39,142 nt of DNA from Myxococcota bacterium (GTDB taxonomy: Bacteria; Myxococcota; UBA4151): contig JAYZBQ010000013.1 in assembly GCA_036338695.1 (NCBI GenBank), positions 1 to 39,142 of the forward strand, read 5' to 3'. Shown piece after piece: positions 550 to 37,846 of the stretch; positions within the stretch are counted from its first letter, which is position 1, and every line of letters begins with the position of its first letter. The translations under genes and the position numbers were made by a program. A model generated the notes under the pieces. It had not been told where the DNA came from, did no database searches, and saw only the letters and a list, made by a program, of their open reading frames with translations.

Positions 550-1650
550 CTAGTAGCCCGCCAGCGCCGCCCAGGTACTGCGGCAGCTGTGAGCATCACC
601 AAACAACACAGAGCCCACCTGCGCGCTTTTGAGGTGGAAGCCGATGTCATGCTCGTCGGTAACGCCGATGCCGCCGTGCAGTTGGACCCCCTCGCGCGAC
701 GCGAGGGAGTACGCTTCACCGCACTGCGCTTTCGCAAGCGCGGCGGCGCGCGCCCGCTCGACGCCGCCGAGCGCAAACTGGTCGACCCCAATCCGCAGCG
801 CCGCCTCAGCCATCTGCAAGCGGATAAAGACCTGACTGATGCGGTGCTGAAGCGCTTGAAAAGAGCCGATCGGCACGCCGAACTGCTGGCGCGTCTTGAG
901 GTACTCCAGCGTCATCTCAAAACTCGCCTGTGCGCCGCCGACCATCTGTGCAGCGAGCCCAAGCCGGCCAGCATCGAGCATCCGCTTGATCGCCTCACGG
1001 GCAGGACCGCCGCGTGCGAGAAGCTGCGCGTCGGCGACGAGGACCTCATCAAACACCAGCCGTGCGCTGTTGCGGTGGTCGATCAAGGCTTGCGCCTGCA
1101 CCTCGAGCCCTGCTGCGTCGCGATCAACCCAGCACACCATCTGCCCGTCATCGCACCGAGCGCTGACCACATAACCCGAGGCGCCGAGCCCGCCGAGCAC
1201 CATGGTCGCCCTACCGCTCAAGCGCCAGCCATCAGCCGCTTGCGTGGCTTGGACGCTCGGCGCAAAGACATCAGGCCGTCTCGCCTCGCTCTGCCAGGCG
1301 ACCGCAGCGCGCCGTCCGCTCGAGAGCTCCGCGAGGCGTTGACTGCGCATGGCGCCGCCCGGGCAGCCCAAAAGCGCCTCGATCGGCAGCTGATGCGCGC
1401 TCAAAACGGGCAGTTCGATGAGGGCTTTGCCGCCCTCCTTGATCAAAGCCACCAGCGCCGGCCAGCCGAGGTCCATGCCGCCGTGCTCTTCAGCGAGCGC
1501 CACCCCCATAAACCCTTGCGCCACGCAGGCGTCGAACAGCGCGTCATCGCCAGGTTGACCGGCGCGCCGAGCGCGCAGCACCTCGGCGCCCCCGTGTTCT
1601 GCGCAGAACTGAGCCGCCGTTTGGCGGATGAGTTCGAGCTCGTCGCTCAC
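550..1650 (-). CDS. Acyl-CoA dehydrogenase family protein (short partner subunit of a heteromeric ACAD pair)
   Basis: RQQFGVPIGSFQALQHR and QLHGGIGVTDEH ACAD motifs; start re-assigned to GTG at 1650, which overlaps the upstream TGA (GTGA, 1647-1650). Confidence 0.88.
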   Translation of the reverse strand: MSDELELIRQTAAQFCAEHGGAEVLRARRAGQPGDDALFDACVAQGFMGVALAEEHGGMDLGWPALVALIKEGGKALIELPVLSAHQLPIEALLGCPGGAMRSQRLAELSSGRRAAVAWQSEARRPDVFAPSVQATQAADGWRLSGRATMVLGGLGASGYVVSARCDDGQMVCWVDRDAAGLEVQAQALIDHRNSARLVFDEVLVADAQLLARGGPAREAIKRMLDAGRLGLAAQMVGGAQASFEMTLEYLKTRQQFGVPIGSFQALQHRISQVFIRLQMAEAALRIGVDQFALGGVERARAAALAKAQCGEAYSLASREGVQLHGGIGVTDEHDIGFHLKSAQVGSVLFGDAHSCRSTWAALAGY

Positions 1651-2846
1651 GCAGACCCCTTCGGTAACCCCAGCACGCGCTGCGCGAGGATGTTCAGCTG
1701 AATCTCCGAGGTGCCGCCCTCGATCGAATTGGCGCGGCTGCGCAGCCAGGCGCGGGTCGTCTCGAGGTCCCCTTCGCAAAAGCCCGCGCCGGACCAGCCA
1801 AGCCCGTGCGTCCCGGCGATGCGCATCTCGAGATCATAGCGAGCCTTCTTGAGCTCCGTGCCGACCAGCTTGATGACCGACGCCTCGGGGCCGGGCGTTC
1901 GCCCGGCGCGGCGAGCCTGGTCGATCCGCTTGAGCAGCTCGTGATAGCAGGCCTCCTTCATGGCGTACGCTGCGACCTCCTGGCGCAAGCTCTCGTCTGC
2001 CAAGCGAGCGTCGCGCTCGCCGACTGCGCTGCGAGCCGAGTCCGCCAGGGACGCCTCAAGGCCCGACAGCTGACCAGCGATCGCTGCGCCGATCATCGAG
2101 CGCTCAAAGCCGAGCAGCGCTTTAGCGACCCCCCAGCCCTCATCGATCGCCCCGACGACGTGCCGAACCGGGACGCGCACGTCGCTGAAGAAGACCTCAC
2201 AAAACGGCGATGACCCGCTGATCAGTTCGATCGGCCGCACCTCGACTCCTGGGCTGTCGAGGTCGATCAAGAGGAACGTGATCCCCTGCTGCTTACGCTC
2301 ACCTCTGCTGGTCCGAACCAGCGCAAAGATCCAATCGCTTAGGTGGGCGTAGCTCGTCCAAATTTTTTGCCCCGTGATCACCAGCTCGTCGCCGTCGCGC
2401 TGCGCCTGCATGGTCAGGCTCGCCAGGTCGCTCCCCGCCCCTGGCTCGGAGTAGCCCTGACACCAGCGCAGGTCGCCGCGTACGATCGCTGGGAGGTGTT
2501 CCGTTTTTTGCGCGTCGGTCCCGTAGTGCAGCAGCGTCGGCCCGATCATGGTCAAGCCGAAGCCCACCACGGGCGGCGGCACCTTGGCGTCGACGAGCGC
2601 TTGCTCCCAGGCGGTGTACTCCTCGGCGCCGAGCCCTCCGCCACCGTACGCCTCGGGCCAAGTAGGTGCTGTCAGTCCATGCTCAAGGCATCGATCTCGC
2701 CACACGAGGTAATCGGGGTTTTCATGACACCAGCGGCGGCCGCCCCAAAACCCATCGAACGCGCCGAGCCGCGTCCCGCGCAGGCTCTCGGGCGCAGACG
2801 CTGCGATGAATTCGGCAAACTGATCTGACGACAGACGCTTCGACAT
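1647..2846 (-). CDS. Acyl-CoA dehydrogenase family protein (long subunit of a heteromeric ACAD pair)
   Basis: WCQGYSEPGAGSDLASL, GQKIWTS and IEGGTSEIQ motifs; ATG at 2846 with GGAG upstream preferred over TTG at 2861. Confidence 0.9.
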   Translation of the reverse strand: MSKRLSSDQFAEFIAASAPESLRGTRLGAFDGFWGGRRWCHENPDYLVWRDRCLEHGLTAPTWPEAYGGGGLGAEEYTAWEQALVDAKVPPPVVGFGLTMIGPTLLHYGTDAQKTEHLPAIVRGDLRWCQGYSEPGAGSDLASLTMQAQRDGDELVITGQKIWTSYAHLSDWIFALVRTSRGERKQQGITFLLIDLDSPGVEVRPIELISGSSPFCEVFFSDVRVPVRHVVGAIDEGWGVAKALLGFERSMIGAAIAGQLSGLEASLADSARSAVGERDARLADESLRQEVAAYAMKEACYHELLKRIDQARRAGRTPGPEASVIKLVGTELKKARYDLEMRIAGTHGLGWSGAGFCEGDLETTRAWLRSRANSIEGGTSEIQLNILAQRVLGLPKGSA

Positions 2847-2980
2847 CTCGGCGCGCTCCAACGCCCAAGCATCTAACGCTCACCCCCCTGAAAGGCTAGG
2901 GTCGCTCGCATCGTGGGACCGAGCTCACCCCTACCGTGCCGAGCCTCGATCAAAGTCTCGGGCGTCTTCTGGACGGTAAA

Positions 2981-2998
2981 ACTGAAACATGTTCTAGT
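2981..2998. promoter_or_regulatory. KstR-type operator (site 1) in the divergent region between the ACAD pair and the amidohydrolase-hsaACDE operon
   Basis: ACTGAAACATGTTCTAGT; core 2983-2996 TGAAACATGTTCTA fits TnnAACnnGTTnnA; about 25 nt upstream of GTG 3021. Confidence 0.8.
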
Positions 2999-3020: not shown

Positions 3021-3848
3021 GTGGCGATCAGCGAGGCGGTGATCGATACCTTCGTCAACGTCAACATGGGTTCCACCGAGCGGCCGGACTGGCTCGTGCG
3101 CGTGGCCGAAGATTACTTCAAGCGGGCCGACGCGATCTTCCAAGACATCGAAGCCGACGAGCTGGTTGAGACCATGGACCGCTGCGGTGTCAGCAAGGCG
3201 ATCATCACGATGCGTGCGCTCGAGCCTGACCCGCGCATCCTCGCCTTCCCCGAGCGCTATCCCGAGCGCTTTAGCCTCAGCATCAGCTGCGACCCGCGCC
3301 AAGGCATGAAGACCGTCCGGGCGCTCGAGAGTCTCGCCCGAGCCCATCCGGTCAGCCTGGCGCGCATGGTGCCCTTCATGACTGGCGTTGCGCCGAACCA
3401 GGCGCCGTCCTATCCGGTCTTTGCGAAGTGCTGTGAGCTCGGTCTACCGATCTCGGTCAACACGGGGATCCCCGGACCGCCCGCCCCCGGCATGGTCCAG
3501 CACCCGATGCACCTCGATGAGGTCTGCTTGTTCTTTCCCGAGCTCGAGCTGGTCATGGCGCACGGCGCCGACCCCTGGTGGGCTGAGGCGATCCGGCTGA
3601 TGCTCAAGTACAAAAATCTCTACCTGATGACCTCCGCCTATGCGCCAAAGTACCTGCCGCAGTCGCTGCTGGACTTTATGAACTCGCGCGGGCGCCACAA
3701 AATCCTCTTCGCATCCGACCACCCCGTTTTGGGGATGGATCGTTGCTGCGCTGAGGCGCGTGAGCTATCGCTCAAACCAGAGGCTCTGCGCGCCTACCTG
3801 AATGAAAACGCTCAGCGCCTGTTTTTTGATCGACTGGAGGTGACATGA
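3021..3848 (+). CDS. Amidohydrolase_2 family protein
   Basis: TIM-barrel amidohydrolase_2 motifs (YPVFAKCCELGLPISVNTG, FPELELVMAHG, KILFASDHP, ENAQRLF); GTG 3021 follows GGAGGG RBS; stop overlaps hsaA start (ATGA). Confidence 0.85.
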   Translation: MAISEAVIDTFVNVNMGSTERPDWLVRVAEDYFKRADAIFQDIEADELVETMDRCGVSKAIITMRALEPDPRILAFPERYPERFSLSISCDPRQGMKTVRALESLARAHPVSLARMVPFMTGVAPNQAPSYPVFAKCCELGLPISVNTGIPGPPAPGMVQHPMHLDEVCLFFPELELVMAHGADPWWAEAIRLMLKYKNLYLMTSAYAPKYLPQSLLDFMNSRGRHKILFASDHPVLGMDRCCAEARELSLKPEALRAYLNENAQRLFFDRLEVT

Positions 3849-5023
3849 CGGTCGACGTCCAATGGCTCAAGAAAGCAGAGGCTCTAGGCGATGCGCTCGC
3901 CGAGCGCAGGACAGCCTGCGAGGCGCAGTCACGGATGCCGCAAGAAACGGTCGATGACTTTCACGACGCCGGGCTCTGGCGCTTGCTTCAACCCAAGCGC
4001 TACGGCGGCGCTGAGGCGCACCCGAACACCTTCATGGCTTGCCAAACAGCGATCGCAAAGCGCTGTCCATCCAGCGCCTGGGTCTACGGGGTCGTCGGTG
4101 TGCACTCTTGGCAGCTGGCGCTGTTCGACGAGCGCGCACAGGACGAGGTTTGGGGCGACGACACCCGCGTCCTCATCTCGTCTTCGTACGCGCCGACCGG
4201 GCAGGTCGAGCGGGTCGAGGGCGGCTATCGGCTGACCGGCACCTGGAAGTTCAGCTCAGGCTGCGAGTTCTGTGACTGGGTGTTCCTGGGTGGGTTTGTC
4301 CCAGCCGCCGAGGGCGCCCCGCCAGGTCCCCCGGACATGAGAACGTTCTTGCTCCCCAAATCCGACTATCGGATCGATCGGACCTGGAACGTGGCAGGGC
4401 TGCAGGGGACCGGGAGCCACAACATCGTCGTTGATGGCGCCTTCGTGCCCGAGCATCGGACCCACAAAATGTCGGACGGCTTCAACCTTAAAAGCCCCGG
4501 CAACTCGGTGAACACGGCGCCGCTGTTCAAGGTACCGTTCGGCTTGTTGTTTACCCGATCGGTCTCCACCACAGCGATCGGTCTACTTGAGGGCGCGCTC
4601 GACGCGTACCTCAAGGTGGCGCGCTCAAAGGTGAGCGCCTCGGACCAACGGCGCGTCGTCGAAGACCCCAAAAGTCAGGAGGTCTGCGCGGAGGCACGCG
4701 CAGAGCTCGAGAGCGTCAAGTTGGTGCTTGAGCGCACCTTTAATGAGCTGATGCAGGCGGCCGAGCGAGGCGAGCGACCGACGATCGAGCGGCGCGCCCT
4801 GTTCCGCTACGAGAGCGCCATGGCGGTGCAACGCTGTATGGAGCAAGTGGACAAGCTGATGAGCCAAAGCGGCGGCACGGCGATCTTCGCCGATGCGCCC
4901 ATTCAACCGTTTTTCCAGGGCATCCACGCGGCGCGAGGACACTACGCCAACAACCCGGCGAAGCCCGCGCAGAATCTGGGACGCGTCTTGCTCGAGCTCA
5001 AAACTCAGGACTTCTTTTTGTGA
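3845..5023 (+). CDS. hsaA: Flavin-dependent monooxygenase, oxygenase subunit (3-HSA 4-hydroxylase, HsaA/TesA type)
   Basis: VGVHSWQLALFDERAQDEVWGDD...ISSSYAP...WKFSSGC...GLQGTGS closely resembles HsaA as I recall it; adjacent extradiol dioxygenase and MCP hydrolase. Confidence 0.88.
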   Translation: MTVDVQWLKKAEALGDALAERRTACEAQSRMPQETVDDFHDAGLWRLLQPKRYGGAEAHPNTFMACQTAIAKRCPSSAWVYGVVGVHSWQLALFDERAQDEVWGDDTRVLISSSYAPTGQVERVEGGYRLTGTWKFSSGCEFCDWVFLGGFVPAAEGAPPGPPDMRTFLLPKSDYRIDRTWNVAGLQGTGSHNIVVDGAFVPEHRTHKMSDGFNLKSPGNSVNTAPLFKVPFGLLFTRSVSTTAIGLLEGALDAYLKVARSKVSASDQRRVVEDPKSQEVCAEARAELESVKLVLERTFNELMQAAERGERPTIERRALFRYESAMAVQRCMEQVDKLMSQSGGTAIFADAPIQPFFQGIHAARGHYANNPAKPAQNLGRVLLELKTQDFFL

Positions 5024-5919
5024 TCCGACCGGTAGCTCAGCTGGGCTATCTTGGCTTCGGCGTCTCCGACCTCGAGGCATGGGCGTCGTTCGCCACGCAG
5101 ATTCTCGGGTTGCAGCTCACCGATCCAGACGAACACGGCTTTGACCTGCGCCTCGACAGCCACCGGCGCCGCTTTCTTATCCGTAAGGACCCCTCAGACG
5201 ACCTCAACCTGGTGGGCTGGCAGGCGGCGGACGCCGACAGCTTTGACGCCTTGGCGGAGCGCCTCGAGACCGCAGGCGTCTCCCCGCGTAGTGCGCCGGA
5301 GCCCCTGCGCAAGGCGCGCGGCGTCAACCGCCTCGTGCAGTTCGAAGACCCGGCAGGGATTCCCAGCGAGCTGGCGCTCGGTTACGACACCGCAGCGACG
5401 CCCTTCACCTCTGAGCTCGTGCGCGACGGGTTCGTGGCTGAAGAGCTCGGCCTAGGACACCTCGTCGTCACCAGCGAAGATCAAGCGCGCAGCGAGCGGT
5501 TCTACGAGCAGACCCTGGGCTTTGGTTTCTCCGACCGGATCAGCTGTACGGTCTTCGGCTACGACGTCGACATCGCCTTCTTTCATACCAACGCCCGCCA
5601 CCACAGCGTCGCGGTCGGAGGGCGGCTCGATAAACGCATTCACCACTTCATGATCGAGGCGAAGGCGATGGATGAGGTCGGCCGCGCCTACGACCGGTGC
5701 ATTCGCCAGCGCATCCCGATCATGAACACGCTGGGTCGACACCCCAACGACCAGATGTTTTCGTTCTACGCGTTCACGCCGTCGGGGTTTCAATTTGAGT
5801 TTGGGTGGGGCGGGCGAGCCGTCGACCCGGCCGATCACCCCGCCGGTGCCTTTGACCGCATCTCAGAGTGGGGTCACCACCCCCCAGCGCTGCTCGCTCC
5901 CCGAAAGAAGAAGCCGTGA
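5020..5919 (+). CDS. hsaC: Extradiol ring-cleavage dioxygenase (HsaC/TesB/BphC type)
   Basis: QLGYLG N-terminus; metal-ligand motifs GLGHLV, RHHSVA, IHHFMIE; TLGRHPNDQMFSFYAFTPSGFQFEFGWGG. Confidence 0.88.
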   Translation: MIRPVAQLGYLGFGVSDLEAWASFATQILGLQLTDPDEHGFDLRLDSHRRRFLIRKDPSDDLNLVGWQAADADSFDALAERLETAGVSPRSAPEPLRKARGVNRLVQFEDPAGIPSELALGYDTAATPFTSELVRDGFVAEELGLGHLVVTSEDQARSERFYEQTLGFGFSDRISCTVFGYDVDIAFFHTNARHHSVAVGGRLDKRIHHFMIEAKAMDEVGRAYDRCIRQRIPIMNTLGRHPNDQMFSFYAFTPSGFQFEFGWGGRAVDPADHPAGAFDRISEWGHHPPALLAPRKKKP

Positions 5920-6749
5920 TCGATACGCCCCGAAGGGTCCCACGCGGCGCCAGCGTCCCCATCGGTGATGGGCTTGAGATTCACTATCACGAGGCAGGCA
6001 GCGGGCCGCCGGTCATCTTTGTTCACGGAAGCGGACCTGGGGGCAGCGGCTGGTCGAACTTTCAAGGCAACTATGAGCCGCTCGCCCAGGCTGGGTTTCG
6101 CTGTCTGGTGCCGGATCTGATCGGCTACGGCTACTCATCCAAGCCCGACGATGCGCGCTATACGCTCGATTACCTCACACGCGGCGTGGTCGCCTTTGCC
6201 GACCAACTCGGGCTCGAGCGCTTTGCGCTCATCGGTAACTCGCTCGGAGGCGCCATCTGCATCCGGTTGGCGCTCGACCACCCCGAGCGGGTCGAGCGCA
6301 TGGTGCTGATGGCTCCGGGTGGCATCGAGTCGCGAGCCGTCTACATGGGCATGAAGGGTATCCGCAGCATGCTGCGCGCGCTCTTTGACCCTGCGGGGCT
6401 CACGCTTGAGAGCATGCGTAAGGTGTTCAGCAAGCAACTCTTCGACCCGAGCATGGTCTCTGAGGCGCTGCTCGAGCAGCGCTTTCACATCGCCCAGCTG
6501 CAACCCCAGGCGGTGTTCGCGACCAGCCAGGTCCCAGATCAAAGCGGTGAGTTGCACCAGATCACTTGCCCGGTGCTCGGCTTATGGGGCGAGGACGACC
6601 AGTTCTGTCCGATCTCTGGGGCGGCGACGCTCGAGCAGGCGCTGCCCGATGTGCGCGTCGAGCGCTTTTCGAATTGTGGGCATTGGGTCATGGTTGAGCA
6701 TGAGGCGGTCTTCAACAACCTCGTTCGCGACTTTTTATCGGAGCGCTGA
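5916..6749 (+). CDS. hsaD: Meta-cleavage product C-C hydrolase (HsaD/TesD/BphD type)
   Basis: HGSGPGGSGWSNF, GNSLGG nucleophile elbow, CGHW; GTG at 5916 overlaps the hsaC stop (GTGA). Confidence 0.85.
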   Translation: MIDTPRRVPRGASVPIGDGLEIHYHEAGSGPPVIFVHGSGPGGSGWSNFQGNYEPLAQAGFRCLVPDLIGYGYSSKPDDARYTLDYLTRGVVAFADQLGLERFALIGNSLGGAICIRLALDHPERVERMVLMAPGGIESRAVYMGMKGIRSMLRALFDPAGLTLESMRKVFSKQLFDPSMVSEALLEQRFHIAQLQPQAVFATSQVPDQSGELHQITCPVLGLWGEDDQFCPISGAATLEQALPDVRVERFSNCGHWVMVEHEAVFNNLVRDFLSER

Positions 6750-7531
6750 TGGCTCTTGCACAACACCTCATCGACGCCCTCGGGGACGAGCTCTGGGCTT
6801 GTCTCAACGAGCGGCGGACCGTCGCGCCGATCACCGATCGTCACCCCGAAATGACGATCGATGATGCGTACGCCGTCAACCTGCGTCTGCGGAACCTACG
6901 CAGCGCCCGCGGGGACCGCCTCGTCGGGAAGAAAATCGGCGTCACGAGCCACGCAGTTCAGAGCATGCTCGGCGTTGACCAGCCTGACTTTGGGTTCCTT
7001 TTTGACACCATGGTGTACGAGCGAGAGATGCCGATCTCGAAGCAACTCATTCAGCCGCGCGCAGAGGGAGAGCTCGCCTTTGTGCTCAAGGCGCCGCTGC
7101 AAGGCCCGGGCGTCACCGACGAAGACGTCCTCACTGCCACCGAGGCGGTCATCCCCTGCTTTGAGGTGGTCGACTCACGGATCGCCGACTGGAAGGTCAA
7201 AATCCAGGACACGGTGGCGGATAACGCTAGCTGCGGGCTCTACATCCTAGGGCAGGGCGTCTCGCCGCACGGTCTGGATTTCCCCAACCTGGCGATGCGC
7301 GTGTTCAAGAATGGGGAGCTGCTGAGCGAGGGCGAAGGCCGCGCAGCGCTTGACTCGCCCGTCAAGTGCGTGACCTGGCTCGCCAACACCCTAGGACGCT
7401 ACGGGATCTCGTTGGACGCTGGTGATGTGATCTTATCGGGGTCCTGGGTCCCCCTCGAGCCGGTCCAAGCGGGGGATACCATGCGGCTTGAGATCGGCGG
7501 GGTCGGCGCCTGTGAGGTCGTCTTTACCTGA
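6749..7531 (+). CDS. hsaE: 2-hydroxy-penta/hexa-2,4-dienoate hydratase (HsaE/TesE/MhpD/DmpE type)
   Basis: GKKIGVTS...QPDFG, QPRAEGE, EVVDSRI, IQDTVADNASCG (FAH-superfamily hydratase). Confidence 0.88.
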   Translation: MALAQHLIDALGDELWACLNERRTVAPITDRHPEMTIDDAYAVNLRLRNLRSARGDRLVGKKIGVTSHAVQSMLGVDQPDFGFLFDTMVYEREMPISKQLIQPRAEGELAFVLKAPLQGPGVTDEDVLTATEAVIPCFEVVDSRIADWKVKIQDTVADNASCGLYILGQGVSPHGLDFPNLAMRVFKNGELLSEGEGRAALDSPVKCVTWLANTLGRYGISLDAGDVILSGSWVPLEPVQAGDTMRLEIGGVGACEVVFT

Positions 7532-10149: not shown

Positions 10150-10206
10150 GCGCCACCTTGCGCTCTTGGACGGAGCGTGCACTAAGGCGGCGAGGAGGGG
10201 GTGATC

Positions 10207-13424: not shown

Positions 13425-13616
13425 TCACTCAGCGAGCGTAAGCGCGCCGCGCGGGCACAGCCGGATCGCCTCCATCAGCTCCGCTCGGCGCGCCGGCGTA
13501 ACGTGCTCGTGATGGACGACGAGGACGTCGAGATCCGTGACCTCAAACACCTCCGGGCAGGCGTCCATGCACAACCCGTTCGCCTCACAGAGGTCGAGAT
13601 CCACAGAAACCTTCAT
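13425..13616 (-). CDS. Small single-cluster ferredoxin (probably 3Fe-4S; FdxD-like)
   Basis: MKVSVDLDLCEANGLCMDACPEVF...CPRGAL: CxxNxxC...CP pattern; last gene of the side-chain operon. Confidence 0.88.
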   Translation of the reverse strand: MKVSVDLDLCEANGLCMDACPEVFEVTDLDVLVVHHEHVTPARRAELMEAIRLCPRGALTLAE

Positions 13617-14689: not shown

Positions 14690-14691
14690 CG

Positions 14692-22688: not shown

Positions 22689-22706
22689 GATGCCCGTCCG
22701 TTTGCG

Positions 22707-24534: not shown

Positions 24535-24552
24535 ACTAGAACGCGTTCTAGT
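24535..24552. promoter_or_regulatory. KstR-type operator (site 3, perfect 18-bp palindrome), probable autoregulatory site
   Basis: ACTAGAACGCGTTCTAGT is its own reverse complement; 24 nt upstream of the TetR ATG; TTGACC lies just upstream on the minus strand. Confidence 0.88.
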
Positions 24553-24553
24553 T

Positions 24554-27267: not shown

Positions 27268-27362
27268 CAACAGCATCCGACCAGGACGAGCGCTGGTCAA
27301 GGCATCCGCTGTGTGATCGCCCCCTCTAGACAAAGGAGGGCGCGCAAGGGAGAGCCACGACC

Positions 27363-28145: not shown

Positions 28146-29053
28146 TGCGCATCCTCGTTGCGCTGCTGCTCGTGATCGCCTGGCCGGCGCAAGCCCATCG
28201 CATGGGGCTGGCGCGCCTGCTGATCGAGCAAGGCGAGACGGTCGAGCTGTCGCTCGCCATGAACCCACCGGCAGCAAAACACCGTCTGCGCCCACTGCCG
28301 CCGAGCGGTTGCGTAGCGCTGAGCGGTTGGCGCCCGACGCTGGATCGGCTGCATCTAGCGGCTCAATGGCGTTGCTCGAAACCGATTGAGCAGCTCACCA
28401 TCGATCAACAAGGCGACTACGAGGGGTCCTTGTTGGTCCAGCTCGACCGAGACGGTGTGCGCATCGAGCGCGTGAGTCGAGGCGGCGCCTCGCTCGACTT
28501 CCGTCTGCCGTCCAAAGGTCAGCCGGCGAACGCGTTTTGGAGCGGCTTTAATCACCTGCTCGCCGGTTGGGATCACCTGCTCCTGATCGCGCTGATCGGG
28601 GTGAGCGGTCGCAGCCTTCGGTCCCTCTTGTCTGCGACGCTGGCGTTCACGCTCGGTCACGCCGTGAGCCTGACCGTCGTAGCCCTCGGCTGGGTGCGCT
28701 TGCCGGGCGCGCCCATCGAGGCGGCGATCGCGCTGAGCCTGCTCATGATGGCATGGCTCAGTCTTCGCGAGGAGCCACGTTATGAGCCCACCGCGCTGAT
28801 CAGCTTTGGCGCGTTGCATGGGCTGGGTCTGGCTTCTGGGTTTGCGTCGGTGGGGCTCGACGGCTGGCCACTCGTTGAGGGGGTGCTGCTGTTCAACATC
28901 GGGGTCGAGCTCGCTCAGGTCGGCTGGCTCCTCGCCGTGGTCTTGATCCACCGCATGACGCCTGCCTATAACACCCGGACGCTGGTTGCCTACGCAGCCG
29001 GAGGGTTCGCAACCTATTGGATGATTCAGCGTACGCTCGAGCTCGGTTCCTGA
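28145..29053 (+). CDS. HupE/UreJ-family membrane protein
   Basis: Signal peptide AQA-H, GFNHLLAGWDHLL, AFTLGHAVSL, IEAAIALS, FGALHGLG, FNIGVELAQ. Confidence 0.85.
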   Translation: MRILVALLLVIAWPAQAHRMGLARLLIEQGETVELSLAMNPPAAKHRLRPLPPSGCVALSGWRPTLDRLHLAAQWRCSKPIEQLTIDQQGDYEGSLLVQLDRDGVRIERVSRGGASLDFRLPSKGQPANAFWSGFNHLLAGWDHLLLIALIGVSGRSLRSLLSATLAFTLGHAVSLTVVALGWVRLPGAPIEAAIALSLLMMAWLSLREEPRYEPTALISFGALHGLGLASGFASVGLDGWPLVEGVLLFNIGVELAQVGWLLAVVLIHRMTPAYNTRTLVAYAAGGFATYWMIQRTLELGS

Positions 29054-30960: not shown

Positions 30961-31000
30961 GTTGCCGGCTGAGCCGCCCATACGCTAAGAGCCTTGTACG

Positions 31001-31759
31001 ATGCGCTGTTCACTGATCGCAGTCCTGCCCCTGATCGCCTGCTCATCTCCGGAGCCTGCGCCCGTGCCTGCTCGCGACGCAGGGCCTCAGGTACGTGACG
31101 GCGGCGTCGGCAACTGCGGTGACTCGTGGCTGCTTACGTATCAGATCGACGGCACCTTCTTCATCACCGACACGACAGGCGGTATGGGCAACGCCGATCG
31201 ACCGTTGACCACCGGCTCGCTCACGCTCCGAGTGCCAGATCAAGACGGCGCGCCGGGGTCGGGAGCGGCTCAAGTCGTTGATTTCGAGCACGGTGAGCAG
31301 TTCACCGTGACCGCCTTTGGTATCGAGACCATCACCGACGTGGCGGTGAAAGCCGGGCCGAACCCCTGCGGCGTGGCGGCGGGCACGCGCAGCGACGACA
31401 CGCTGACCTGGGCTGAATGCACCGCCAACGACCAACGAGGTGTCGACAAAAATAGCTGGACCCCCGATGACCCGGCCTCGGGCTCCGGGTGTCTCAACGA
31501 CTACTCGACGAGAGGCAACGTCGCCTGTGAGGGCTTGTTTTGTAGCACCGGCGGGCTCGAAGAGGGCGACAACCCGCAAGCTGAAGACTACCACCAACCC
31601 CTCGAAGCCTTCGTGTTTGAAGACGGCTGGGATCGGTTCACGATGGCGCGCTCGGAGATCCCAAACCGTACGCCGAGCCGGACTTGGTTCACGCTGCGCG
31701 GTGAGCTGCTCGAGCAAGAATTGTCCAACACGCCGATGTGTCTGTGCGCAGCGCCGTGA
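31001..31759 (+). CDS. Hypothetical lipoprotein (acidic, several Cys)
   Basis: MRCSLIAVLPLIA-CSSPEP lipobox, RDAG/RDGG linker; fits the operon (stop overlaps next ATG); no recognised family. Confidence 0.7.
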   Translation: MRCSLIAVLPLIACSSPEPAPVPARDAGPQVRDGGVGNCGDSWLLTYQIDGTFFITDTTGGMGNADRPLTTGSLTLRVPDQDGAPGSGAAQVVDFEHGEQFTVTAFGIETITDVAVKAGPNPCGVAAGTRSDDTLTWAECTANDQRGVDKNSWTPDDPASGSGCLNDYSTRGNVACEGLFCSTGGLEEGDNPQAEDYHQPLEAFVFEDGWDRFTMARSEIPNRTPSRTWFTLRGELLEQELSNTPMCLCAAP

Positions 31760-32700
31760 TGGCGCTCAAGCCTGCGCGCAGCAACTGGTCGCTGCGGCGG
31801 CTCACGGGGGGGCTGCGTAGCCCGACGCGCTGGGTCCGGCGGCTCCTCAAGCTGCGCTTTCGGCGCGCCGGGCTGGCACCGTACCGGCTCGAACTCGGCG
31901 ACGGACACCTACACGTTTGGAGCGGCGGCAAAGGCTCCGAGACGCTGGTTTTGCTTCACGGCTTTGGAGGCAGCTGCCTGTGGCAGTGGGCCGATATGGT
32001 CGGCGCGCTCGCCAAGCGCTACCGACTGCTCGTCCCCGATCTCTTGTGGTTCGGGGACAGCGACGGCGAGGCGGCGCAAGGCAGCTTGAAAACCCAGGCT
32101 GCGGCGATCCGTGCGCTGCTCGAGTCGGTCGGTGAGCCGGTCCACGTGGCGGGTATCTCGTATGGCGGCTTCGTCGGTTACATGATCGCCGACGAACACC
32201 CGGGGTTAGTACACAGCCTAACGCTGATCGACTGTCCGGCGACGGTTATGGGCAAAGACGACTACCACCGAGTCCTCGAACGCTTCGCCATTCCGGATAT
32301 GAACGAGCTGCTGGTGCCAGATCAGCCCAGCGTGCTGCCCGATTTGCTTGCGCTCGCCTACCATCGCCCGCCGCGCGTCCCCAAATTTGCCTGGCGAGAC
32401 GCACACCATCACCTCTTTACCGAACACCGCGCCAAGCGCGTCGAGCTGCTCGATGACCTGATCGCGTACCTTGAGACCCCTTACACCGAACAAGAGCGCC
32501 ACCACCCCGTGCTCATTCTCTGGGGTGAACACGACGCGTTGTTTCCGGTCTCGCTGGCGCGACGCCTCAAAGAACACCTCGGCGGCCGGGCGCAGCTTGA
32601 GATCATCCCCAACACGGCGCACGCGCCGATCGTCGAGGCGCCCAAGACCATCAATTCGCTCCTGCTTCGCTTTCTCGCCGGTCAAACCCAGAGCGCCTAG
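31759..32700 (+). CDS. Alpha/beta-fold hydrolase
   Basis: LLHGFGG, VPDLLWFGDS, GISYGG, LWGEHD, AHAP; ATG 31759 overlaps the previous TGA. Confidence 0.85.
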   Translation: MALKPARSNWSLRRLTGGLRSPTRWVRRLLKLRFRRAGLAPYRLELGDGHLHVWSGGKGSETLVLLHGFGGSCLWQWADMVGALAKRYRLLVPDLLWFGDSDGEAAQGSLKTQAAAIRALLESVGEPVHVAGISYGGFVGYMIADEHPGLVHSLTLIDCPATVMGKDDYHRVLERFAIPDMNELLVPDQPSVLPDLLALAYHRPPRVPKFAWRDAHHHLFTEHRAKRVELLDDLIAYLETPYTEQERHHPVLILWGEHDALFPVSLARRLKEHLGGRAQLEIIPNTAHAPIVEAPKTINSLLLRFLAGQTQSA

Positions 32701-32703
32701 TTC

Positions 32704-33948
32704 ATGATCTCAAAGCGTATTCGGGTGATCGAAGACCCGCCAACGATGAGCGTGAGCGAGCGGGAGGTCCCTGCGCACCACGCCGAGATCACGCAAGACG
32801 CCGTCGAATCCATCTGGAGCGCCGTGCTCAGCTACTATCGCATGGGCCTGCAGCCGGCGATGAGCTTGTGCGTTCGCGTGCGCGGCCACGTCGTCCTCGA
32901 TCGCACCGTCGGGCATCGCTTGGGGAACGCGCCGGACGACTCACCGAGCGCCCCCCTCATCCCGGCAACCCCCGATACGCCGTTTAACCTCTTCTCGGCG
33001 TCCAAGCCGATCACGGCCATGATCGTGCATGGCTTGATCGAGCGGGGCTTGCTCAAGCTCGACGACCCCATCAGCCGCTACCTCCATGAGTTCGATCAAG
33101 CCGGCAAACGCGACATCACGCTCCGGCACGTTCTGAGCCACCGCGCAGGGCTCGAAAAGATACCCGGCGCCATCGACCTCGACCGGCTCGATGACCACGA
33201 CCACTTCCGTCGCCTGTTTGCGACCACGCCGATGGCGAGCCAAAGCGGCAGTAATTCAGCCTATCATGCCATCACGGGTGGCTACATCTTGTGGGAGGTC
33301 GTGCGAGAGGTAACCGGTCGCTGCCTCAAAGACCTACAGCGCGAATGGGTCTGCGAACCGCTCGGGTTCACCCACATGAACTACGGCATCGACACCGCCC
33401 ACCGCGCCTCGGCTGCGCCGGATGTGTTCACAGGACCGCCTGCGCTGTATCCGCTTGGACAGATCCTCGAGCGTGCGGTCGGAGTCGACATTCGAGGGGT
33501 GGTCGAGACCACCAACGATGAGCGGTTCTTGGGCGCTGTCGTCCCCTCGGCGAACATCTTCGCCACCGCCAACGAAGCCTGCCGTTACTTTGAGATGCTC
33601 CGCTGTGGCGGCACCCTAGAGGGTCACCGCATCTTCGCTGAAGAGACCGTGCAACGCGCCGTGGGGCAGTCTGCGTTCACCGAGCTGGACTCCGTGATCA
33701 AGCTCCCGATCCAGTACGGGTTAGGGTTCATGCTCGGCAACCCCCTCCTGAGCCTCTTTGGGCCGCGCACGGCTGGCGCCTTTGGGCACCTCGGTTACAC
33801 CAACGTTTTGGTCTGGGCTGACCCTCAGCGCGAGCTCTCCGTTGCGTTCTTAAACAACGGCAAACCCTTTGTGACCCCGGAGCTCTTGGTTTGGCTGAAC
33901 ATCCCACGCACGATCTGTTCGCAGATCCCGCGACGATTGGCAGCCTGA
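32704..33948 (+). CDS. Beta-lactamase-fold serine hydrolase (family VIII esterase, LipE-like)
   Basis: FSASK (SxxK), ITLRHVLSHRAG, AYHAITGG, YGLGFMLG, AFGHLG. Confidence 0.85.
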   Translation: MISKRIRVIEDPPTMSVSEREVPAHHAEITQDAVESIWSAVLSYYRMGLQPAMSLCVRVRGHVVLDRTVGHRLGNAPDDSPSAPLIPATPDTPFNLFSASKPITAMIVHGLIERGLLKLDDPISRYLHEFDQAGKRDITLRHVLSHRAGLEKIPGAIDLDRLDDHDHFRRLFATTPMASQSGSNSAYHAITGGYILWEVVREVTGRCLKDLQREWVCEPLGFTHMNYGIDTAHRASAAPDVFTGPPALYPLGQILERAVGVDIRGVVETTNDERFLGAVVPSANIFATANEACRYFEMLRCGGTLEGHRIFAEETVQRAVGQSAFTELDSVIKLPIQYGLGFMLGNPLLSLFGPRTAGAFGHLGYTNVLVWADPQRELSVAFLNNGKPFVTPELLVWLNIPRTICSQIPRRLAA

Positions 33949-35036
33949 TGGATTTTCGCCCTGCGCCTGATGTGCTCGAGCTGCTCGCGCTCACCGAGCG
34001 CTGGCTGGAGCCTCAGCGGTCAATCGATGCGCTCCTTGAGGCGCAAGCGCAGCCCGCCGGCTATCAAGTCAGCGCCTGGAACCAATGCGCTGAGCTTGGC
34101 TTGTGCAGCCTCCTCATCGATGAAGCGTACGGCGGTACGCAGATGGGCCTTGAGGCGATGTGCCACCTCAGCGAAGCCTTCGGCCGGGCGCTGCTGGCTT
34201 CCCCCCACTTCGCCCACGCCGTGCTCGCCTCCGACCTCCTCAACATGAGCGAAGCAGAGGCGCTCAAGGCGCAGCACCTCGGCGCCTGGGCGATGGGGGA
34301 AACCTGCGCCACGGTAGCATCCGGGGGTCGGTCGGACTGGGTGGATGGCACCTTGAGCGGCACCTGGGACAATGTCCTCCACGGCGACACGGCTGATCAG
34401 ATCGTGCTGACAGCGCACGATCAGAGCGGTCAACCGCTCATCCTCCTGCTCAACGCCGATGCCTTTGAACGGACCGTACAGCACGGGTTCGATCAGAGCC
34501 GGCAGCGAGCCCGCCTCGTCCTGCCGAGACGACCGGTGGACCCGAGCGAAGTGATCGCCTCTGGTGAGCACGCGCAGCGTCTTGTTTCCCTCGCCCAGCA
34601 GCGAGCTCAGGTGGTCCTGGCCTACGAACAACTCGGGGTCGCGCAGGCATGTCTAGACGCCAGCCTTGAGTACGCCAAAACGCGCCGACAGTTCGGCACG
34701 ATCATCGGCACCTTCCAAGCCATCAAACACCTGATCGCAGACCTTTACACTCAGCTCGAGGCGGCTCGCTCAGCCGCAGTGTTCGCAGCCTGGTGTGCGG
34801 ATCACGAGCCCGATCAGCTCCCCTTTGCATCGCTCACAGCGGCTCAGCTGGCTGGCGACGCGGCCTTCCAATGCGCCGGGCAAAACATCCAGATCCACGG
34901 TGGGATCGGCTTTACCTGGGAGCATCCAGCGCACCTCTACTTCAAGCGCGCTCAGTCGAACCAGCATCTGCTCGGCTGCTCGCTCGATCAGCTTGATCAA
35001 GCGGCGCGCCTGCTCGAGCTCGAAGGAGGCTGCTGA
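33948..35036 (+). CDS. Acyl-CoA dehydrogenase partner subunit (candidate IpdE2/FadE33 equivalent)
   Basis: RRQFGTIIGTFQAIKH, QIHGGIGFTWEHPAHLYFKRA; ATG 33948 in TGATG overlap; precedes the fadE30-like gene. Confidence 0.85.
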   Translation: MDFRPAPDVLELLALTERWLEPQRSIDALLEAQAQPAGYQVSAWNQCAELGLCSLLIDEAYGGTQMGLEAMCHLSEAFGRALLASPHFAHAVLASDLLNMSEAEALKAQHLGAWAMGETCATVASGGRSDWVDGTLSGTWDNVLHGDTADQIVLTAHDQSGQPLILLLNADAFERTVQHGFDQSRQRARLVLPRRPVDPSEVIASGEHAQRLVSLAQQRAQVVLAYEQLGVAQACLDASLEYAKTRRQFGTIIGTFQAIKHLIADLYTQLEAARSAAVFAAWCADHEPDQLPFASLTAAQLAGDAAFQCAGQNIQIHGGIGFTWEHPAHLYFKRAQSNQHLLGCSLDQLDQAARLLELEGGC

Positions 35037-36217
35037 TGGATCTGCGCTTTAGCGACGAGGAGCAGGCGCTTCGGGCTCAGGTACGCGCCTTTTTGCACGA
35101 ACAACTCGGCGGTCGGTTCGCTGCGCTGCGCGGGCGCGGCGGCCCTGGGGACGAAGAGGAGCTGTTCGACGAGCGGCTCGAGTGGGAGCGTTTTCTGGGC
35201 AGCCAAGGCTGGAATTGCCTGAGCTGGCCGGCCCGCTACGGTGGGCGCGAGCTGCCGCTGATGCAGGAGGTTATCTTCTTTGAAGAGTATGCGCGCGCCC
35301 AAGCGCCCGGACGCCTCGGACACATCGGCGAGGGCCTGCTTGGACCCACGCTCATCGCCCTCGGCACCGAGGAGCAGCGCCAGCGGTTCTTGCCGAAGAT
35401 TGCATCGGCCGAAGAGCTCTGGTGTCAAGGTTACTCGGAGCCCGGCGCCGGCAGTGACCTCGCGGGCATTAGGACACGCGCTGAGCGGCACGGTGATGAG
35501 TGGGTGATCCATGGTCAGAAGGTGTGGACCTCTCTGGCGCATCGATCCGACTGGTGCTTTGTCCTCGCTCGCTCGGAGAAGGGCTCTCAGCGCCATCAAG
35601 GGCTCAGCTATCTGCTGGTCCCCCTGGATCAACCCGGCGTCGACATTCGCCCGATCACGCAGCCAACGGGTGAAGGCGATTTTAATGAAGTGTTTTTCGA
35701 CGGCGCACGAACGGAGGCGCGCTGGGTAGTGGGTGCCCCAGGCGACGGCTGGCGCATCGCCATGGCGACGCTTGCGTTTGAGCGCGGGACATCCACGCTG
35801 GCGCAGCAGCTCAATTTTGCCAACGAATGGCAGCAGATTGCCACCGCAGCAAAGACCCTAGGCGCCCTCAAGCACCAGCAGATTCGCCACCGCCTCGTGC
35901 AGAGCCGGATGGAGCTGCTCGCGATGCGCTGGTCGACCCTGCGTATGCTCACCGGCATGCTCGAGGGTCGACTCAGCCCCGAGGCGTACACCCTTAAGCT
36001 GTATTGGGCGAGTTGGCACCGGCGGCTGGGCGAGCTCGCCATGGACGTGCTCGGACCGAGCGGCGCCGTGGTGGGGTCAAACTACGACCTGTCCTCGCTG
36101 CAGCGCCTGTTTCTGTTCTCACGAGCGGATACGATCTATGCTGGCTCTAATCAGATCCAAAGGAACCTCATCGCCGAGCGCGCGTTGGGGCTGCCTAAGG
36201 ATCCCTGGAGAGCGTGA
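35036..36217 (+). CDS. fadE30: Acyl-CoA dehydrogenase FadE30/IpdE1-like (steroid C/D-ring, HIP catabolism)
   Basis: LGGRFAALRGRGGPGDE, EEYARAQAP, GEGLLGPTLIA, ELWCQGYSEPGAGSDLA, LFLFSRADTIYAGSNQIQRN. Confidence 0.82.
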   Translation: MDLRFSDEEQALRAQVRAFLHEQLGGRFAALRGRGGPGDEEELFDERLEWERFLGSQGWNCLSWPARYGGRELPLMQEVIFFEEYARAQAPGRLGHIGEGLLGPTLIALGTEEQRQRFLPKIASAEELWCQGYSEPGAGSDLAGIRTRAERHGDEWVIHGQKVWTSLAHRSDWCFVLARSEKGSQRHQGLSYLLVPLDQPGVDIRPITQPTGEGDFNEVFFDGARTEARWVVGAPGDGWRIAMATLAFERGTSTLAQQLNFANEWQQIATAAKTLGALKHQQIRHRLVQSRMELLAMRWSTLRMLTGMLEGRLSPEAYTLKLYWASWHRRLGELAMDVLGPSGAVVGSNYDLSSLQRLFLFSRADTIYAGSNQIQRNLIAERALGLPKDPWRA

Positions 36218-36990
36218 CGATGGCACCACCCGACTACCCAAAAGGTCGCAGCCTGCTCGAAGGCAAAAAGGTCGTCGTGACCGCGGCGGCGGGTACGGGG
36301 ATCGGCTTTGCGACCGCGAAGCGTTGCCTCGAAGAGGGCGCGTCGGTCCTCATCTCGGACCACCACGCCGTGCGCCTCGAACAGGCGGTCGCTCAACTGG
36401 CCGAGCTCGGTGAGGTGGTCTCGGCGGTCTGTGACGTTACCGACGAGCAACACGTCCAAGCGCTCGTTGCCGCCGCGGAGGCGAGCTTGGGCGCCGTTGA
36501 TGTCTGGGTCAACAACGCCGGTCTCGGCGGTCAAGCGCCGCTGATCGAGATGAGCGATGAAGCCTGGCAGCGCGTGCTCGATGTCTCTTTGACCGGCACC
36601 TTCCGGTGCGTGCGCGCCGCCATGAAGCACATGAAGCCCAACGAGCAAGGGGTCATCATCAACAACGCAAGCGTCCTGGGCTGGCGAGCTCAAAAGCATC
36701 AAGCCCACTACGCGGCGGCGAAAGCTGGCGTCATGGCGCTGACCCGCTGCGCTGCGCTCGAAGCCGCCGAGTTTGGTGTGCGCATCAACGCCGTTGCGCC
36801 GAGCCTGGCGATGCATCCCTTCTTGTCCAAGGTGATGGATCAAGGCGAGCTCGATGCACTCGCAACCCAAGAAGCCTTCGGGCGCCCCGCCGAGGTCTGG
36901 GAGGTCGCCAACGTCATCGTCTTTCTAGCCTCTGATCTGAGCAGCTACATGACCGGCGAGACGGTGTCGGTCTCCAGCCAGCGAGCCTAA
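36214..36990 (+). CDS. ipdF: SDR oxidoreductase IpdF-like (5-oxo-HIC-CoA oxidoreductase)
   Basis: LLEGKKVVVTAAAGTGIG...SDHH..RL, NNAGLGG, NNASVLGWRAQ..QAHYAAAKAGV, ending VSVSSQRA; follows fadE30 as in actinobacteria. Confidence 0.85.
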   Translation: MTMAPPDYPKGRSLLEGKKVVVTAAAGTGIGFATAKRCLEEGASVLISDHHAVRLEQAVAQLAELGEVVSAVCDVTDEQHVQALVAAAEASLGAVDVWVNNAGLGGQAPLIEMSDEAWQRVLDVSLTGTFRCVRAAMKHMKPNEQGVIINNASVLGWRAQKHQAHYAAAKAGVMALTRCAALEAAEFGVRINAVAPSLAMHPFLSKVMDQGELDALATQEAFGRPAEVWEVANVIVFLASDLSSYMTGETVSVSSQRA

Positions 36991-36992
36991 AG

Positions 36993-37421
36993 ATGGTCCA
37001 ACCGGTCGAGGGTTTGGTCGGCGAGACCTTTCGCATGCCGATCGAGGAAGGGAAGGTGCTCGAGTTTATCGAGAGCCTCGGGCTGAGCTCGTGGACCTCG
37101 CCCTATGTACCGCCGACCTTTCTCATCAGCGCCTTCTTTTGGGAGCGGCGCATGGCCGGAGCCGACGTCAAAGAGGCCGTCGCCTTCGACCCCGCCCGCT
37201 CCGTCCACGCCGAGCAGTGCTTTGAATTTTTTGGTGCGCCCCCTCGGATCGGCCAGACCTTGAGCGTGCAAAACCGAGTGGACCGCATCTACACCAAAAC
37301 CAACCGGCGAGGCGCCGAGCTCACCTTCGTGGATATCGTCACGGACTATCGAGACGAGACAGGCGATCGGGTCGCAACCAGCACCCTACGCGCCATTGAG
37401 CTGCCCAAGGACACACCATGA
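36993..37421 (+). CDS. MaoC-like dehydratase N-terminal-type (FAS1-like hotdog) subunit
   Basis: IEEGKVLEF...VPPTF...VHAEQCFEF..P..IGQTL...G.LTFV...YRDETGDRVA. Confidence 0.75.
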   Translation: MVQPVEGLVGETFRMPIEEGKVLEFIESLGLSSWTSPYVPPTFLISAFFWERRMAGADVKEAVAFDPARSVHAEQCFEFFGAPPRIGQTLSVQNRVDRIYTKTNRRGAELTFVDIVTDYRDETGDRVATSTLRAIELPKDTP

Positions 37422-37846
37422 ACCTGTGGGCGTTAGCGGCCGGGGAGGCGATTCCGCACTCGTGGGAGCTCGGCCCCATCACACGCAGTGACTGCGTCCG
37501 TTATCAAGGCGCTAGCGGCGATTTTGAGCCCATCCACCACGATGAGCCCTTCGCGCTAAGCGCCGGATACGACGCGCCGTTGATCATCGGGATGTATCCA
37601 GCCGGCGCAGTGAGCGCATGGATGGCGACCCTATGGGGCGTCGATTCGGTGCGCGAGACCACGATCCGTTGGACGGGTCAGGTCTGGCCGGGCGACAGCT
37701 TACGCGCCCAGGCCATCATCGAGGAGGTCGAACCCGCTGCGCGCTGGGTGGCGATCACGCTGAGCAATCAAGGGGCTCAAGAGGTCCTCAGGCTGCGGAT
37801 GCGCCTCGTGCAGACCTCGGCAGAATCCGATATAAGTCCATCATGA
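37418..37846 (+). CDS. MaoC-family (R)-hydratase/dehydratase, catalytic subunit
   Basis: VRYQGASGDFEPIHHD (D-x4-H hydratase motif), VWPGD. Confidence 0.8.
   Translation: MNLWALAAGEAIPHSWELGPITRSDCVRYQGASGDFEPIHHDEPFALSAGYDAPLIIGMYPAGAVSAWMATLWGVDSVRETTIRWTGQVWPGDSLRAQAIIEEVEPAARWVAITLSNQGAQEVLRLRMRLVQTSAESDISPS

Follow-up and report, generated by a model that had tools for sequence, protein, structure and literature searches.

A sterol degradation cluster in a Myxococcota genome

The window analyzed here is a stretch of 39,142 nucleotides that makes up the whole of contig C13 (JAYZBQ010000013.1) of the Myxococcota assembly GCA_036338695.1, hereafter G000, and it carries a large cluster of genes predicted to break down sterols by the aerobic 9,10-seco pathway. 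Pfam and NCBIfam profile scans of its 37 open reading frames found side-chain, A/B-ring and C/D-ring genes together, and each gene named in the original prediction, a first reading of the bare sequence, is where that reading had placed it (Table 1). To this gene set we add three putative KstR operators, a ferredoxin, a kstR-like gene and a continuation on a second contig. The end of C13 and the start of contig C78 share 141 identical bases, and a cysteine-rich gene at the end of the window reads across the join; the steroid cluster thus carries on into C78. There it includes two short-chain dehydrogenases/reductases (SDRs), a thiolase, fadD3, an echA20-type gene, ipdA, ipdB, ipdC, a PRK08290 crotonase, an acyl-CoA dehydrogenase (ACAD) pair, a fadA6-type gene and an Rv3520c-family F420 enzyme. 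Scores above the NCBIfam cut-offs (bits/cut-off) were obtained for fadD3 (715/657), the echA20-type gene (368/260), PRK08290 (404/280), the fadA6-type gene (681/591) and the Rv3520c-family enzyme (357/335). The C78-type genes, ipdF, kstD and the hsa operon all lie on a single contig in a relative, G004. The steroid cluster is therefore larger than first described.

G000 comprises 3.36 Mb in 99 contigs, with a completeness of 93.6% and a contamination of 0.98%. About 94% of it is coding, with 2746 called genes, and the guanine-plus-cytosine (GC) content of the window is flat at 62-67%. As predicted from its genes, this genome encodes nearly every step of aerobic 9,10-seco sterol breakdown.

Steroid enzymes are the closest solved relatives of several pathway proteins

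Five products of the window exceed their NCBIfam cut-offs (FadD19-, Ltp3- and IpdF-type proteins, HsaG and HsaF), while HsaA, KstD, the Ltp4-type protein, HsaE, HsaD and IpdE2 find the expected model as their best match yet score below its cut-off, as expected for a distant lineage (Table 1). We take PRK07798, PRK08313, PRK07937 and PRK07831 to correspond to the mycobacterial genes fadD19, ltp3, ltp4 and ipdF, and both best hits and gene order in the Nocardia farcinica cholesterol region agree with these ties. Among solved structures, the best relatives of HsaA, KstD, KshA, IpdA, ChsE4 and the P450 are all steroid enzymes. HsaA matches the 3-HSA hydroxylase 2RFQ best (9e-83), and three tyrosines and a glycine of 4C3X, presumably its catalytic residues, align with identical residues in KstD. 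The ChsE5/ChsE4-type pair shares 50% and 35% identity with the Nocardia pair, Ltp3 shares 63-68% with actinobacterial and 62-65% with gammaproteobacterial homologues, and the ipdE1/fadE30-like and ipdF products are 60% identical to those of the Nocardia fadE30/ipdF genes next to fadD3.

The original prediction had named several genes to be sought in the rest of the genome. Two kshA genes, with Rieske and KshA_C domains, are present on contigs C32 and C28, and their product matches 4QDC/2ZYL best (4e-66; next family at 1e-16). Both fadD3 and ipdAB are on C78, where IpdA matches 6CON at 8e-82 and the next structure at 2e-20, and cyp125 is on C28, encoding a P450 that among solved structures comes nearest to CYP125/124 enzymes (CYP125 8VXI, 2e-141). 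Neither kshB nor hsaB was found elsewhere in G000. Next to cyp125 is an echA19-like gene. G000 also encodes a PRK07121-family flavoprotein, which we read as a possible Delta-4 dehydrogenase, and a SnoaL-domain protein, which we read as a ketosteroid isomerase; homologues of the latter adjoin kstD in f24, a second Myxococcota family beside that of G000 (f1). Altogether, G000 holds the side-chain set Cyp125/142, ChsE4/E5, FadD19, EchA19 and Ltp3/Ltp4, and the window and C78 hold the C/D-ring set FadD3, IpdF, IpdC, EchA20, IpdAB and FadA6, in which IpdB and IpdC are assigned from 46-52% identity and gene order with no family cut-off. The ACAD pair at the start of the window is kept in the steroid clusters of G003, G004, G403 and G147.

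A KstR-type operator recurs ahead of pathway genes

Three operons of the window are each preceded by an exact match to a consensus palindrome, TnnAACnnGTTnnA, at 2983, 23072 and 24537. Two of the three matches equal TAGAAC(N2)GTTCTA, the KstR palindrome given in PMC1995591 for the mycobacterial regulon, and the position of the first is conserved in G001, G002, G003, G004, G060 and G095. KstR is the best PDB match of the TetR-type protein encoded next to the third operator; overall identity is about 30%, and the recognition helices are almost the same. Scanning G000 with a matrix built from 31 sites of other genera returned 13 sites, eleven of them ahead of genes and two weak ones intragenic. 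Nine of the ten best are intergenic and the other lies before the aligned start of kshA2; the eleventh precedes kshA1. Besides the three operons of the window, the genes headed by these putative operators are cyp125/echA19, kshA1, kshA2, fadD3/echA20, a beta-oxidation operon, a second SCP2, a second P450 and an esterase-like lipoprotein. Because a loose version of the pattern is only modestly enriched (8 in the window versus 3.7; 26 genome-wide, with 59 in one permuted control), our case rests on position and on the tight consensus.

The box between fadD3 and echA20, present in G000, G004 and G403, matters because genes of this type belong to KstR2 in actinobacteria, according to PMC5380842 and PMC8399759. 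No KstR2 orthologue was seen in G000. Using a KstR2-type pattern, we found two sites in the genome, both inside genes and none intergenic. We infer that one KstR-like repressor may govern both the upper pathway and the C/D-ring genes, unlike the separate KstR2 control of actinobacteria. Several observations detract from this regulatory reading: the repressor reaches 80 of the 280 bits required by the KstR model NF033703, the sites used to tighten the pattern came from these same genomes, whose kin are not independent, and no operator precedes the kstD or ipdE operon in G000. An operator does precede kstD in G004 and G065.

On contig C22 (L129:4198-11653), a putative KstR operator heads an operon of fadA, fadB and a PRK07121 flavoprotein. 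Its neighbors encode a protein of the steroid 5-alpha-reductase family and an outer-membrane transporter of the FadL type, a candidate route of uptake.

The cluster is a long-standing part of a myxobacterial-lineage genome

Because G000 is split into 99 contigs, C13 might be a chimera or might hold actinobacterial or proteobacterial DNA binned with the wrong genome. Loci identical to those of G001, G002 and G004 (two genomes of the same genus and one of the same family) are labelled Myxococcota or Myxococcales; a fourth, that of G003, bears the conflicting label Ca. Hydrogenedens, yet the RpoB of G003 is 96% identical to that of G000. The G000 RpoB shares 60-63% identity with most phylum mates and 53-57% with Proteobacteria, and it groups with the former with 100/100 support, on a long branch and in a tree whose outgroups are four Proteobacteria and no other phyla. 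Against a foreign origin, contamination is low, C13 is compositionally ordinary (rank 27 of 63 contigs by tetranucleotide distance), the gene order of the cluster is kept at 60-90% identity in G001-G004, and three independent marine sequencing runs cover all 30 bins of positions 500-20400. Additionally, the GC content of the cluster tracks that of its host from 49% to 72%, which argues that the steroid genes are long resident. Synteny in the relatives and composition led us to reject recent transfer and mis-binning, and we consider a misplaced or chimeric contig extremely improbable. The host is thus of the myxobacterial lineage, as had been proposed. Its class consists of one family with two genera and six genomes, five of which have kshA.

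The ring-cleaving dioxygenase appears to diverge from the steroid type

The hsa-like block could instead be a meta-cleavage operon of the biphenyl or alkylphenol type whose place next to lipid genes means nothing, as the original prediction had itself allowed. Some points against a steroid function come from the ring-cleaving enzymes. The gene in the hsaC position scores higher on the BphC model (281/366) than on the HsaC model (201/450), in the best tree its product falls outside the 100/100 HsaC/TesB clade with BphC/NahC in between, and the HsaD-type hydrolase does slightly better against BphD in the PDB. BphC and BphD are among the best named matches of the two enzymes; the dioxygenase is about 41% identical to BphC, the metal ligands and catalytic triad motifs are common to BphC/BphD and the G000 enzymes, and E, G and F occur in aromatic pathways too. 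The best PDB match of the dioxygenase is 23AL/9X2G.

On the other side, the AU test does not reject a tree in which HsaC/TesB and the dioxygenase are united (p-AU 0.14), and the protein groups by itself with sequences of f24 and the G403 lineage, not nested in BphC. HsaA lies inside the steroid HsaA clade (100/99), the hsa block carries a putative KstR operator in six relatives, and kshA, kstD, ipdAB and cyp125 are steroid-specific. Unlike a biphenyl operon, the block stands in a steroid context without bphA or bphB, neither of which was found in G000, and the genome has no ring-hydroxylating dioxygenase. We therefore judge an aromatic operon highly unlikely. G000 has no second enzyme of this kind and no ring-hydroxylating dioxygenase, and the gene sits between those for HsaA and HsaD; we therefore read the dioxygenase as a divergent enzyme that would perform the HsaC step. 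The suspicion that the enzymes group with biphenyl or phenol types does not apply to HsaA, KstD, KshA, IpdA, ChsE4 or the P450, and may apply in part to the dioxygenase, which does not join HsaC/TesB in the best tree.

Several known components were not found

The inventory has gaps that speak against a complete pathway. No Ltp2 above cut-off was found in any of 17 non-proteobacterial genomes tested (Parahaliea has one), and G000 has a single DUF35 gene and no ChsH2 that we could find. HsaB-family reductases were not found in G000, G001 or G060, and none of the three NAD-binding-domain proteins of G000 has the KshB architecture; G004 carries hsaB inside its cluster, and G060 has a KshB-like protein. 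No 3-beta-hydroxysteroid dehydrogenase or cholesterol oxidase could be assigned in G000, nor was a Mce4 cluster found. ipdA was found in four of six f1 genomes and in one of five f24 genomes.

These absences would suit a partial degrader that trims side chains and opens the rings of short-chain or C17-oxidized steroids, leaving the last C3 unit in place, and that could not mineralize intact sterols on its own. C/D-ring opening begins from a 17-oxo indanone, as described in PMC5380842, and one complete genome, G147, has a truncated version of the system lacking hsaA-D, ipdA and kstR. On the other hand, two families and a third lineage retain the genes of both the upper and the lower pathway with a single type of operator, and PMC8399759 describes proven degraders, such as Sphingobium Chol11, that also lack KshB and HsaB. 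G000 encodes a Fre-like reductase, an Fpr-like reductase and a ferredoxin that could substitute for KshB and HsaB. We consider partial degradation unlikely, and favor a system that consumes sterols more fully. Our best guess for the final side-chain cut is that Ltp3/Ltp4-DUF35 doubles for the missing Ltp2/ChsH2 and removes the last three carbons.

Distribution across genomes and environments

A survey of 401 genomes of the phylum used thresholds of E < 1e-50 for KshA_C, E < 1e-110 for HsaA and at least 7 operators. Seven genomes passed for KshA_C and seven for HsaA, all from f1 and f24. Eight genomes have 7-16 operators, again all in these families, and the others have 0-4; all eight operator-rich genomes have kshA and the repressor, and seven have hsaA. 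The two families are not sisters in the RpoB tree. The dioxygenase was found in four of six f1 and three of five f24 genomes. Two genomes that are 93-94% complete, G005 (f1) and G075 (f24), are without strong kshA, hsaA, ipdA, repressor or operators, a pattern of clean loss or non-acquisition within a family.

Outside the survey, a third lineage with the same predicted pathway shows 13-26 operators, often as tandem pairs, in six of 41 sampled kin (G403, G404, G416, G423, G431 and G443; genomes of 5.8-8.5 Mb). All six have ipdA and the dioxygenase, and five have the repressor, which is absent from five proteobacterial genomes tested. G403 and G404 are labelled Enterobacterales, but RpoB groups them away from Proteobacteria.

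Four complete genomes of 10.2-10.4 Mb from family f10 (G147, G164, G181 and G209) carry cyp125 and kshA2. In G147 (C1:677000-702000) these are clustered with kstD, chsE4/5, fadD19, ltp3/4, a split DUF35 and SCP2; hsaC, ipdA and kstR were not found in that genome. Within f10, 24 of 178 genomes match KshA_C weakly and 61 match HsaA weakly; we did not treat these matches as a pathway. We base no claim on G186, which is flagged unpublished and supplied a weak KshA_C match and a single leaf of a tree.

The hsa stretch was recognized in 20 public sequencing runs from 12 studies, with at least half of its words in nine, and the labelled runs are from marine, seawater, estuary or salt-marsh samples; the comparison covered positions 500-20400 of the window in 30 bins. 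One salt-marsh RNA run yielded short contigs over 17 of the 30 bins, mostly hsa, but the run had itself been picked out by this stretch, DNA carry-over is possible and the level is not readable, so we did not count it as evidence of expression.

Phylogeny and comparison with known systems

Within the HsaA clade, the one actinobacterial sequence and a proteobacterial clade supported at 100/99 are separated by f24 and then by f1 with G403/G404; the rows of this tree were picked by similarity to the query, and its root is weak. An f1 and f24 group of KshA1 (98) shares a branch with enzymes of Nocardia, Pseudomonas and Novosphingobium, and KshA2 groups separately. For IpdA, a 100/100 split sets Proteobacteria apart, and this lineage falls on the side of the actinobacteria. 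Neither the Ltp3 nor the IpdA tree fixes the point at which the lineage joins, so we claim no donor.

The system resembles the 9,10-seco pathway of Mycobacterium, Rhodococcus and Nocardia in cyp125, chsE4/5, fadD19 and echA19, in the order DUF35-ltp4-ltp3, in kstD, kshA, hsaA, D, E, F, G and the C/D-ring set (PMC1995591; PMC5380842), and in a putatively autoregulatory TetR protein with an identical palindrome. It differs in host phylum, in the KstR rather than KstR2 box between fadD3 and echA20, in the low identity of its repressor, in ltp2/chsH2, kshB, hsaB and the Mce4 cluster, which were not found in G000, and in the position of its dioxygenase outside the HsaC clade in the best tree. With the proteobacterial tes/scd systems of Comamonas, Pseudomonas, Burkholderiaceae and Sphingomonadaceae and those of marine Halieaceae and Spongiibacteraceae it shares a Gram-negative host and, in the latter two families, ltp3 (PMC5790920; PMC8399759). 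Proteobacterial HsaA is 41-53% identical to that of G000, nearer than the Nocardia enzyme (39%), and sphingomonads likewise lack KshB/HsaB. In contrast, the Proteobacteria tested have no KstR or operator set, and the HsaA, KshA and IpdA of the lineage branch outside the proteobacterial clades. A review reports that KstR homologues are absent from bile-acid-degrading Proteobacteria, and Cyp125/142 was reported to be absent from Proteobacteria in a 2016 survey (PMC4810484).

In two surveys, Actinobacteria and Proteobacteria are the only phyla with the 9,10-seco pathway. PMC4810484 places steroid degraders only there and names no myxobacteria; PMC5790920 gives the same restriction, with Deltaproteobacteria counted as Proteobacteria and 13 of 49 genomes left at phylum or domain level. 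Among the first 32 of 230 occurrences in Table S2 of the latter (2018) are scattered IpdA/B, HsaA, KshA and KstD hits assigned to Myxococcales, including marine KshA hits nearest Myxococcus stipitatus. Myxobacterial traces are thus already in print, without interpretation. In an open-access library we found no paper that describes the breakdown of steroids by Myxococcota, or a KstR regulon in them. What we describe would be a known pathway and regulon in a phylum where it had not been recognized, with departures in control and enzyme set.

A proposed pathway for the use of eukaryotic sterols

We consider it likely that this aerobic 9,10-seco gene set, with its KstR-type operators, lets a marine Myxococcota lineage consume eukaryotic sterols. 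The original reading of a myxobacterial-lineage sterol catabolic system is supported, and of the objections it had anticipated (foreign DNA, a genome without kshA, biphenyl-type enzymes) none holds cleanly. The substrates probably include C24-branched sterols of algae and plants, because Ltp3 and Ltp4 are present; in actinobacteria these enzymes cleave C24 branches, as the work in PMC6678751 reports. No sterol or hopanoid cyclase was found in five of five genomes tested, G000 included, so the substrate would be foreign to the cell, and the link once drawn to sterol synthesis by myxobacteria does not apply here.

In the proposed scheme, CYP125, fed by the ferredoxin of the window, would oxidize the end of the side chain, which FadD19, ChsE4/E5, EchA19 and an Ltp3-Ltp4-DUF35 aldolase would then shorten. 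KstD and the two KshA copies would open ring B, and HsaA, the divergent dioxygenase and HsaD, E, F and G would break down ring A. Rings C and D would be completed by FadD3, IpdE1/E2, the MaoC pair, IpdF, IpdC, EchA20, IpdAB, FadA6 and a FadE31/32-like pair, encoded in the window and on C78. Control would fall to a single KstR-like repressor, which would hold down its own gene, the upper pathway and the C/D-ring genes until a steroid-CoA intermediate released it, as in mycobacteria. The genes, their homology and catalytic motifs, the operator sites, the synteny and the distribution are observed; from these we infer the activities, the substrate, the binding of the repressor and the removal of the last three carbons.

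A broader and doubtful proposal is that complete aerobic sterol degradation has a third, ancient home in lineages related to myxobacteria, with a single KstR switch over both halves of the pathway and non-standard enzymes for ring A and the last side-chain cut. These lineages might even have been the bridge by which the pathway reached Proteobacteria, since their HsaA branches between the actinobacterial and all proteobacterial enzymes. A pathway this nearly complete, with Cyp125 and a KstR regulon, would make coastal Myxococcota part of the marine sterol sink and would bear on the preservation of sterol biomarkers, and the origin of the pathway would become a question again. Several ideas become testable: one repressor over both halves of the pathway, Ltp3/Ltp4 in place of Ltp2, and the modification of sterols from eukaryotic prey by cultured bacteria with Myxococcus-sized genomes and a truncated cluster.

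Other genes of the window and its surroundings

Table 1. Features of the window, with profile scores as bits/cut-off
Feature	Positions	Strand	Evidence
Heteromeric ACAD pair (1647-2861, 550-1650)	550..2861	-	Pfam ACAD domains; divergent from hsa operon, common operator
Putative KstR operator TGAAACATGTTCTA between ACAD pair and hsa operon	2983..2996	.	Exact consensus match
Amidohydrolase_2 protein, hsa operon gene 1	3021..3848	+	Pfam; start inferred from ribosome-binding site
HsaA-type 3-hydroxy-secosteroid monooxygenase	3845..5023	+	NF045629 398/450; PDB 2RFQ; HsaA clade
Extradiol dioxygenase in hsaC position, divergent from HsaC/TesB	5020..5919	+	Profile scores, trees; sole such enzyme in G000
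HsaD/BphD-type meta-cleavage product hydrolase	5916..6749	+	HsaD 198/400, BphD 183/462
HsaE-type 2-hydroxydienoate hydratase	6749..7531	+	TIGR03220 (DmpE) 361/409
TSP3-repeat amidohydrolase lipoprotein, passenger between hsaE and hsaG	7627..10149	+	Pfam; also in G001, G002
hsaG (10201-11112), hsaF (11109-12146)	10201..12146	+	NCBIfam 442/282 and 539/286, both above cut-off
63-aa single-cluster ferredoxin, last gene of side-chain operon	13425..13616	-	Conserved after chsE5 in G001, G004
ChsE5/ChsE4-type ACAD pair	13613..15864	-	PDB 6WY8 and 4X28, ~1e-120
Thioesterase (15873-16556), FadD19-type steroid-CoA ligase (16556-18151)	15873..18151	-	Pfam; PRK07798 613/543
ltp3 (18162-19322), ltp4 (19319-20233), double-DUF35 protein (20233-21189)	18162..21189	-	PRK08313 621/514; PRK07937 345/419; Pfam
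Aldehyde dehydrogenase (21186-22688), SCP2 sterol carrier (22707-23036), head of side-chain operon	21186..23036	-	Pfam
Putative KstR operator TAGAACGTGTTCTA, 36 bases upstream of SCP2	23072..23085	.	Equals published palindrome; conserved in G001, G004
SDR (23177-23935), KstR-like TetR repressor (23932-24510)	23177..24510	-	PDB KstR 1e-15; NF033703 80/280; PF17925 C-terminal domain
Putative KstR operator TAGAACGCGTTCTA, 27 bases upstream of the repressor's own gene	24537..24550	.	Exact consensus match
Zn-dependent dehydrogenase (24554-25588), KstD (25585-27276)	24554..27276	-	PDB 7P18 3-oxosteroid 1-dehydrogenase 2e-149; KstD 588/788
PPIC protein, HupE/UreJ protein, DUF3604, lipoprotein, alpha/beta hydrolase, LipE-like esterase; accessory	27363..33948	+	Pfam, NCBIfam
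ipdE2-like (33948-35036), ipdE1/fadE30-like (35036-36217), ipdF (36214-36990)	33948..36990	+	IpdE2 145/450; PRK07831 423/336
Two single hot-dog (MaoC-type) proteins	36993..37846	+	Pfam; after ipdF in G004 also
Cys-rich repeat lipoprotein, passenger, continuing into C78	37843..39142	+	ATGA overlap 37843-37846; not at this place in G004

The lipoproteins interleaved with the cluster had been noted in the original prediction, one of them as translationally coupled to the cluster by its ATGA overlap. That overlap is real, but it is not beyond chance, as 419 of the 1946 adjacent same-strand gene pairs in G000 overlap by four bases, and genes with CGDG/CDDGN repeats make up 99 of the 2746 called genes, on 50 of 99 contigs. 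Functional coupling of the lipoproteins was rejected, since both features are ordinary for this genome. At matching places in some relatives they are absent: G004 has no cysteine-rich gene after the MaoC pair, and the gap between hsaE and hsaG, which holds the TSP3 lipoprotein in G001 and G002, holds other genes in G004 and is missing in G060 and G095, where the two genes are adjacent. The cysteine-rich and TSP3 lipoproteins are lineage-specific passengers. Several contig breaks close to steroid genes fall within cysteine-rich repeat genes.

Two small components may have defined roles. The 63-aa ferredoxin is a candidate electron donor for CYP125, and the MaoC-type pair is, by comparison with Comamonas ScdD, a likely heteromeric hydratase for the HIP side chain. 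The Amidohydrolase_2 gene precedes hsaA in f1, f24 and G403/G404, and so heads the hsa operon in three lineages; it lies beside cyp125 in G147 and matches no assigned step of the known pathway. The cluster of G004 also holds the DUF3604 gene, the lipoprotein and both hydrolases of the accessory stretch. G000 has no DUF3604 gene other than the one at 29017-30960. In 17 gammaproteobacterial loci a homologue is found no more than 10 kb from hsaA, and the product may be a steroid-related periplasmic hydrolase. Immediately past fadA6 on C78 (L127:13836-20000), the Rv3520c-family F420-dependent enzyme is accompanied by F420 synthesis genes (cofD, cofH and neighbors). An orphan adenine methyltransferase gene (12207-13424), which follows hsaF, is found in genus g1 only.

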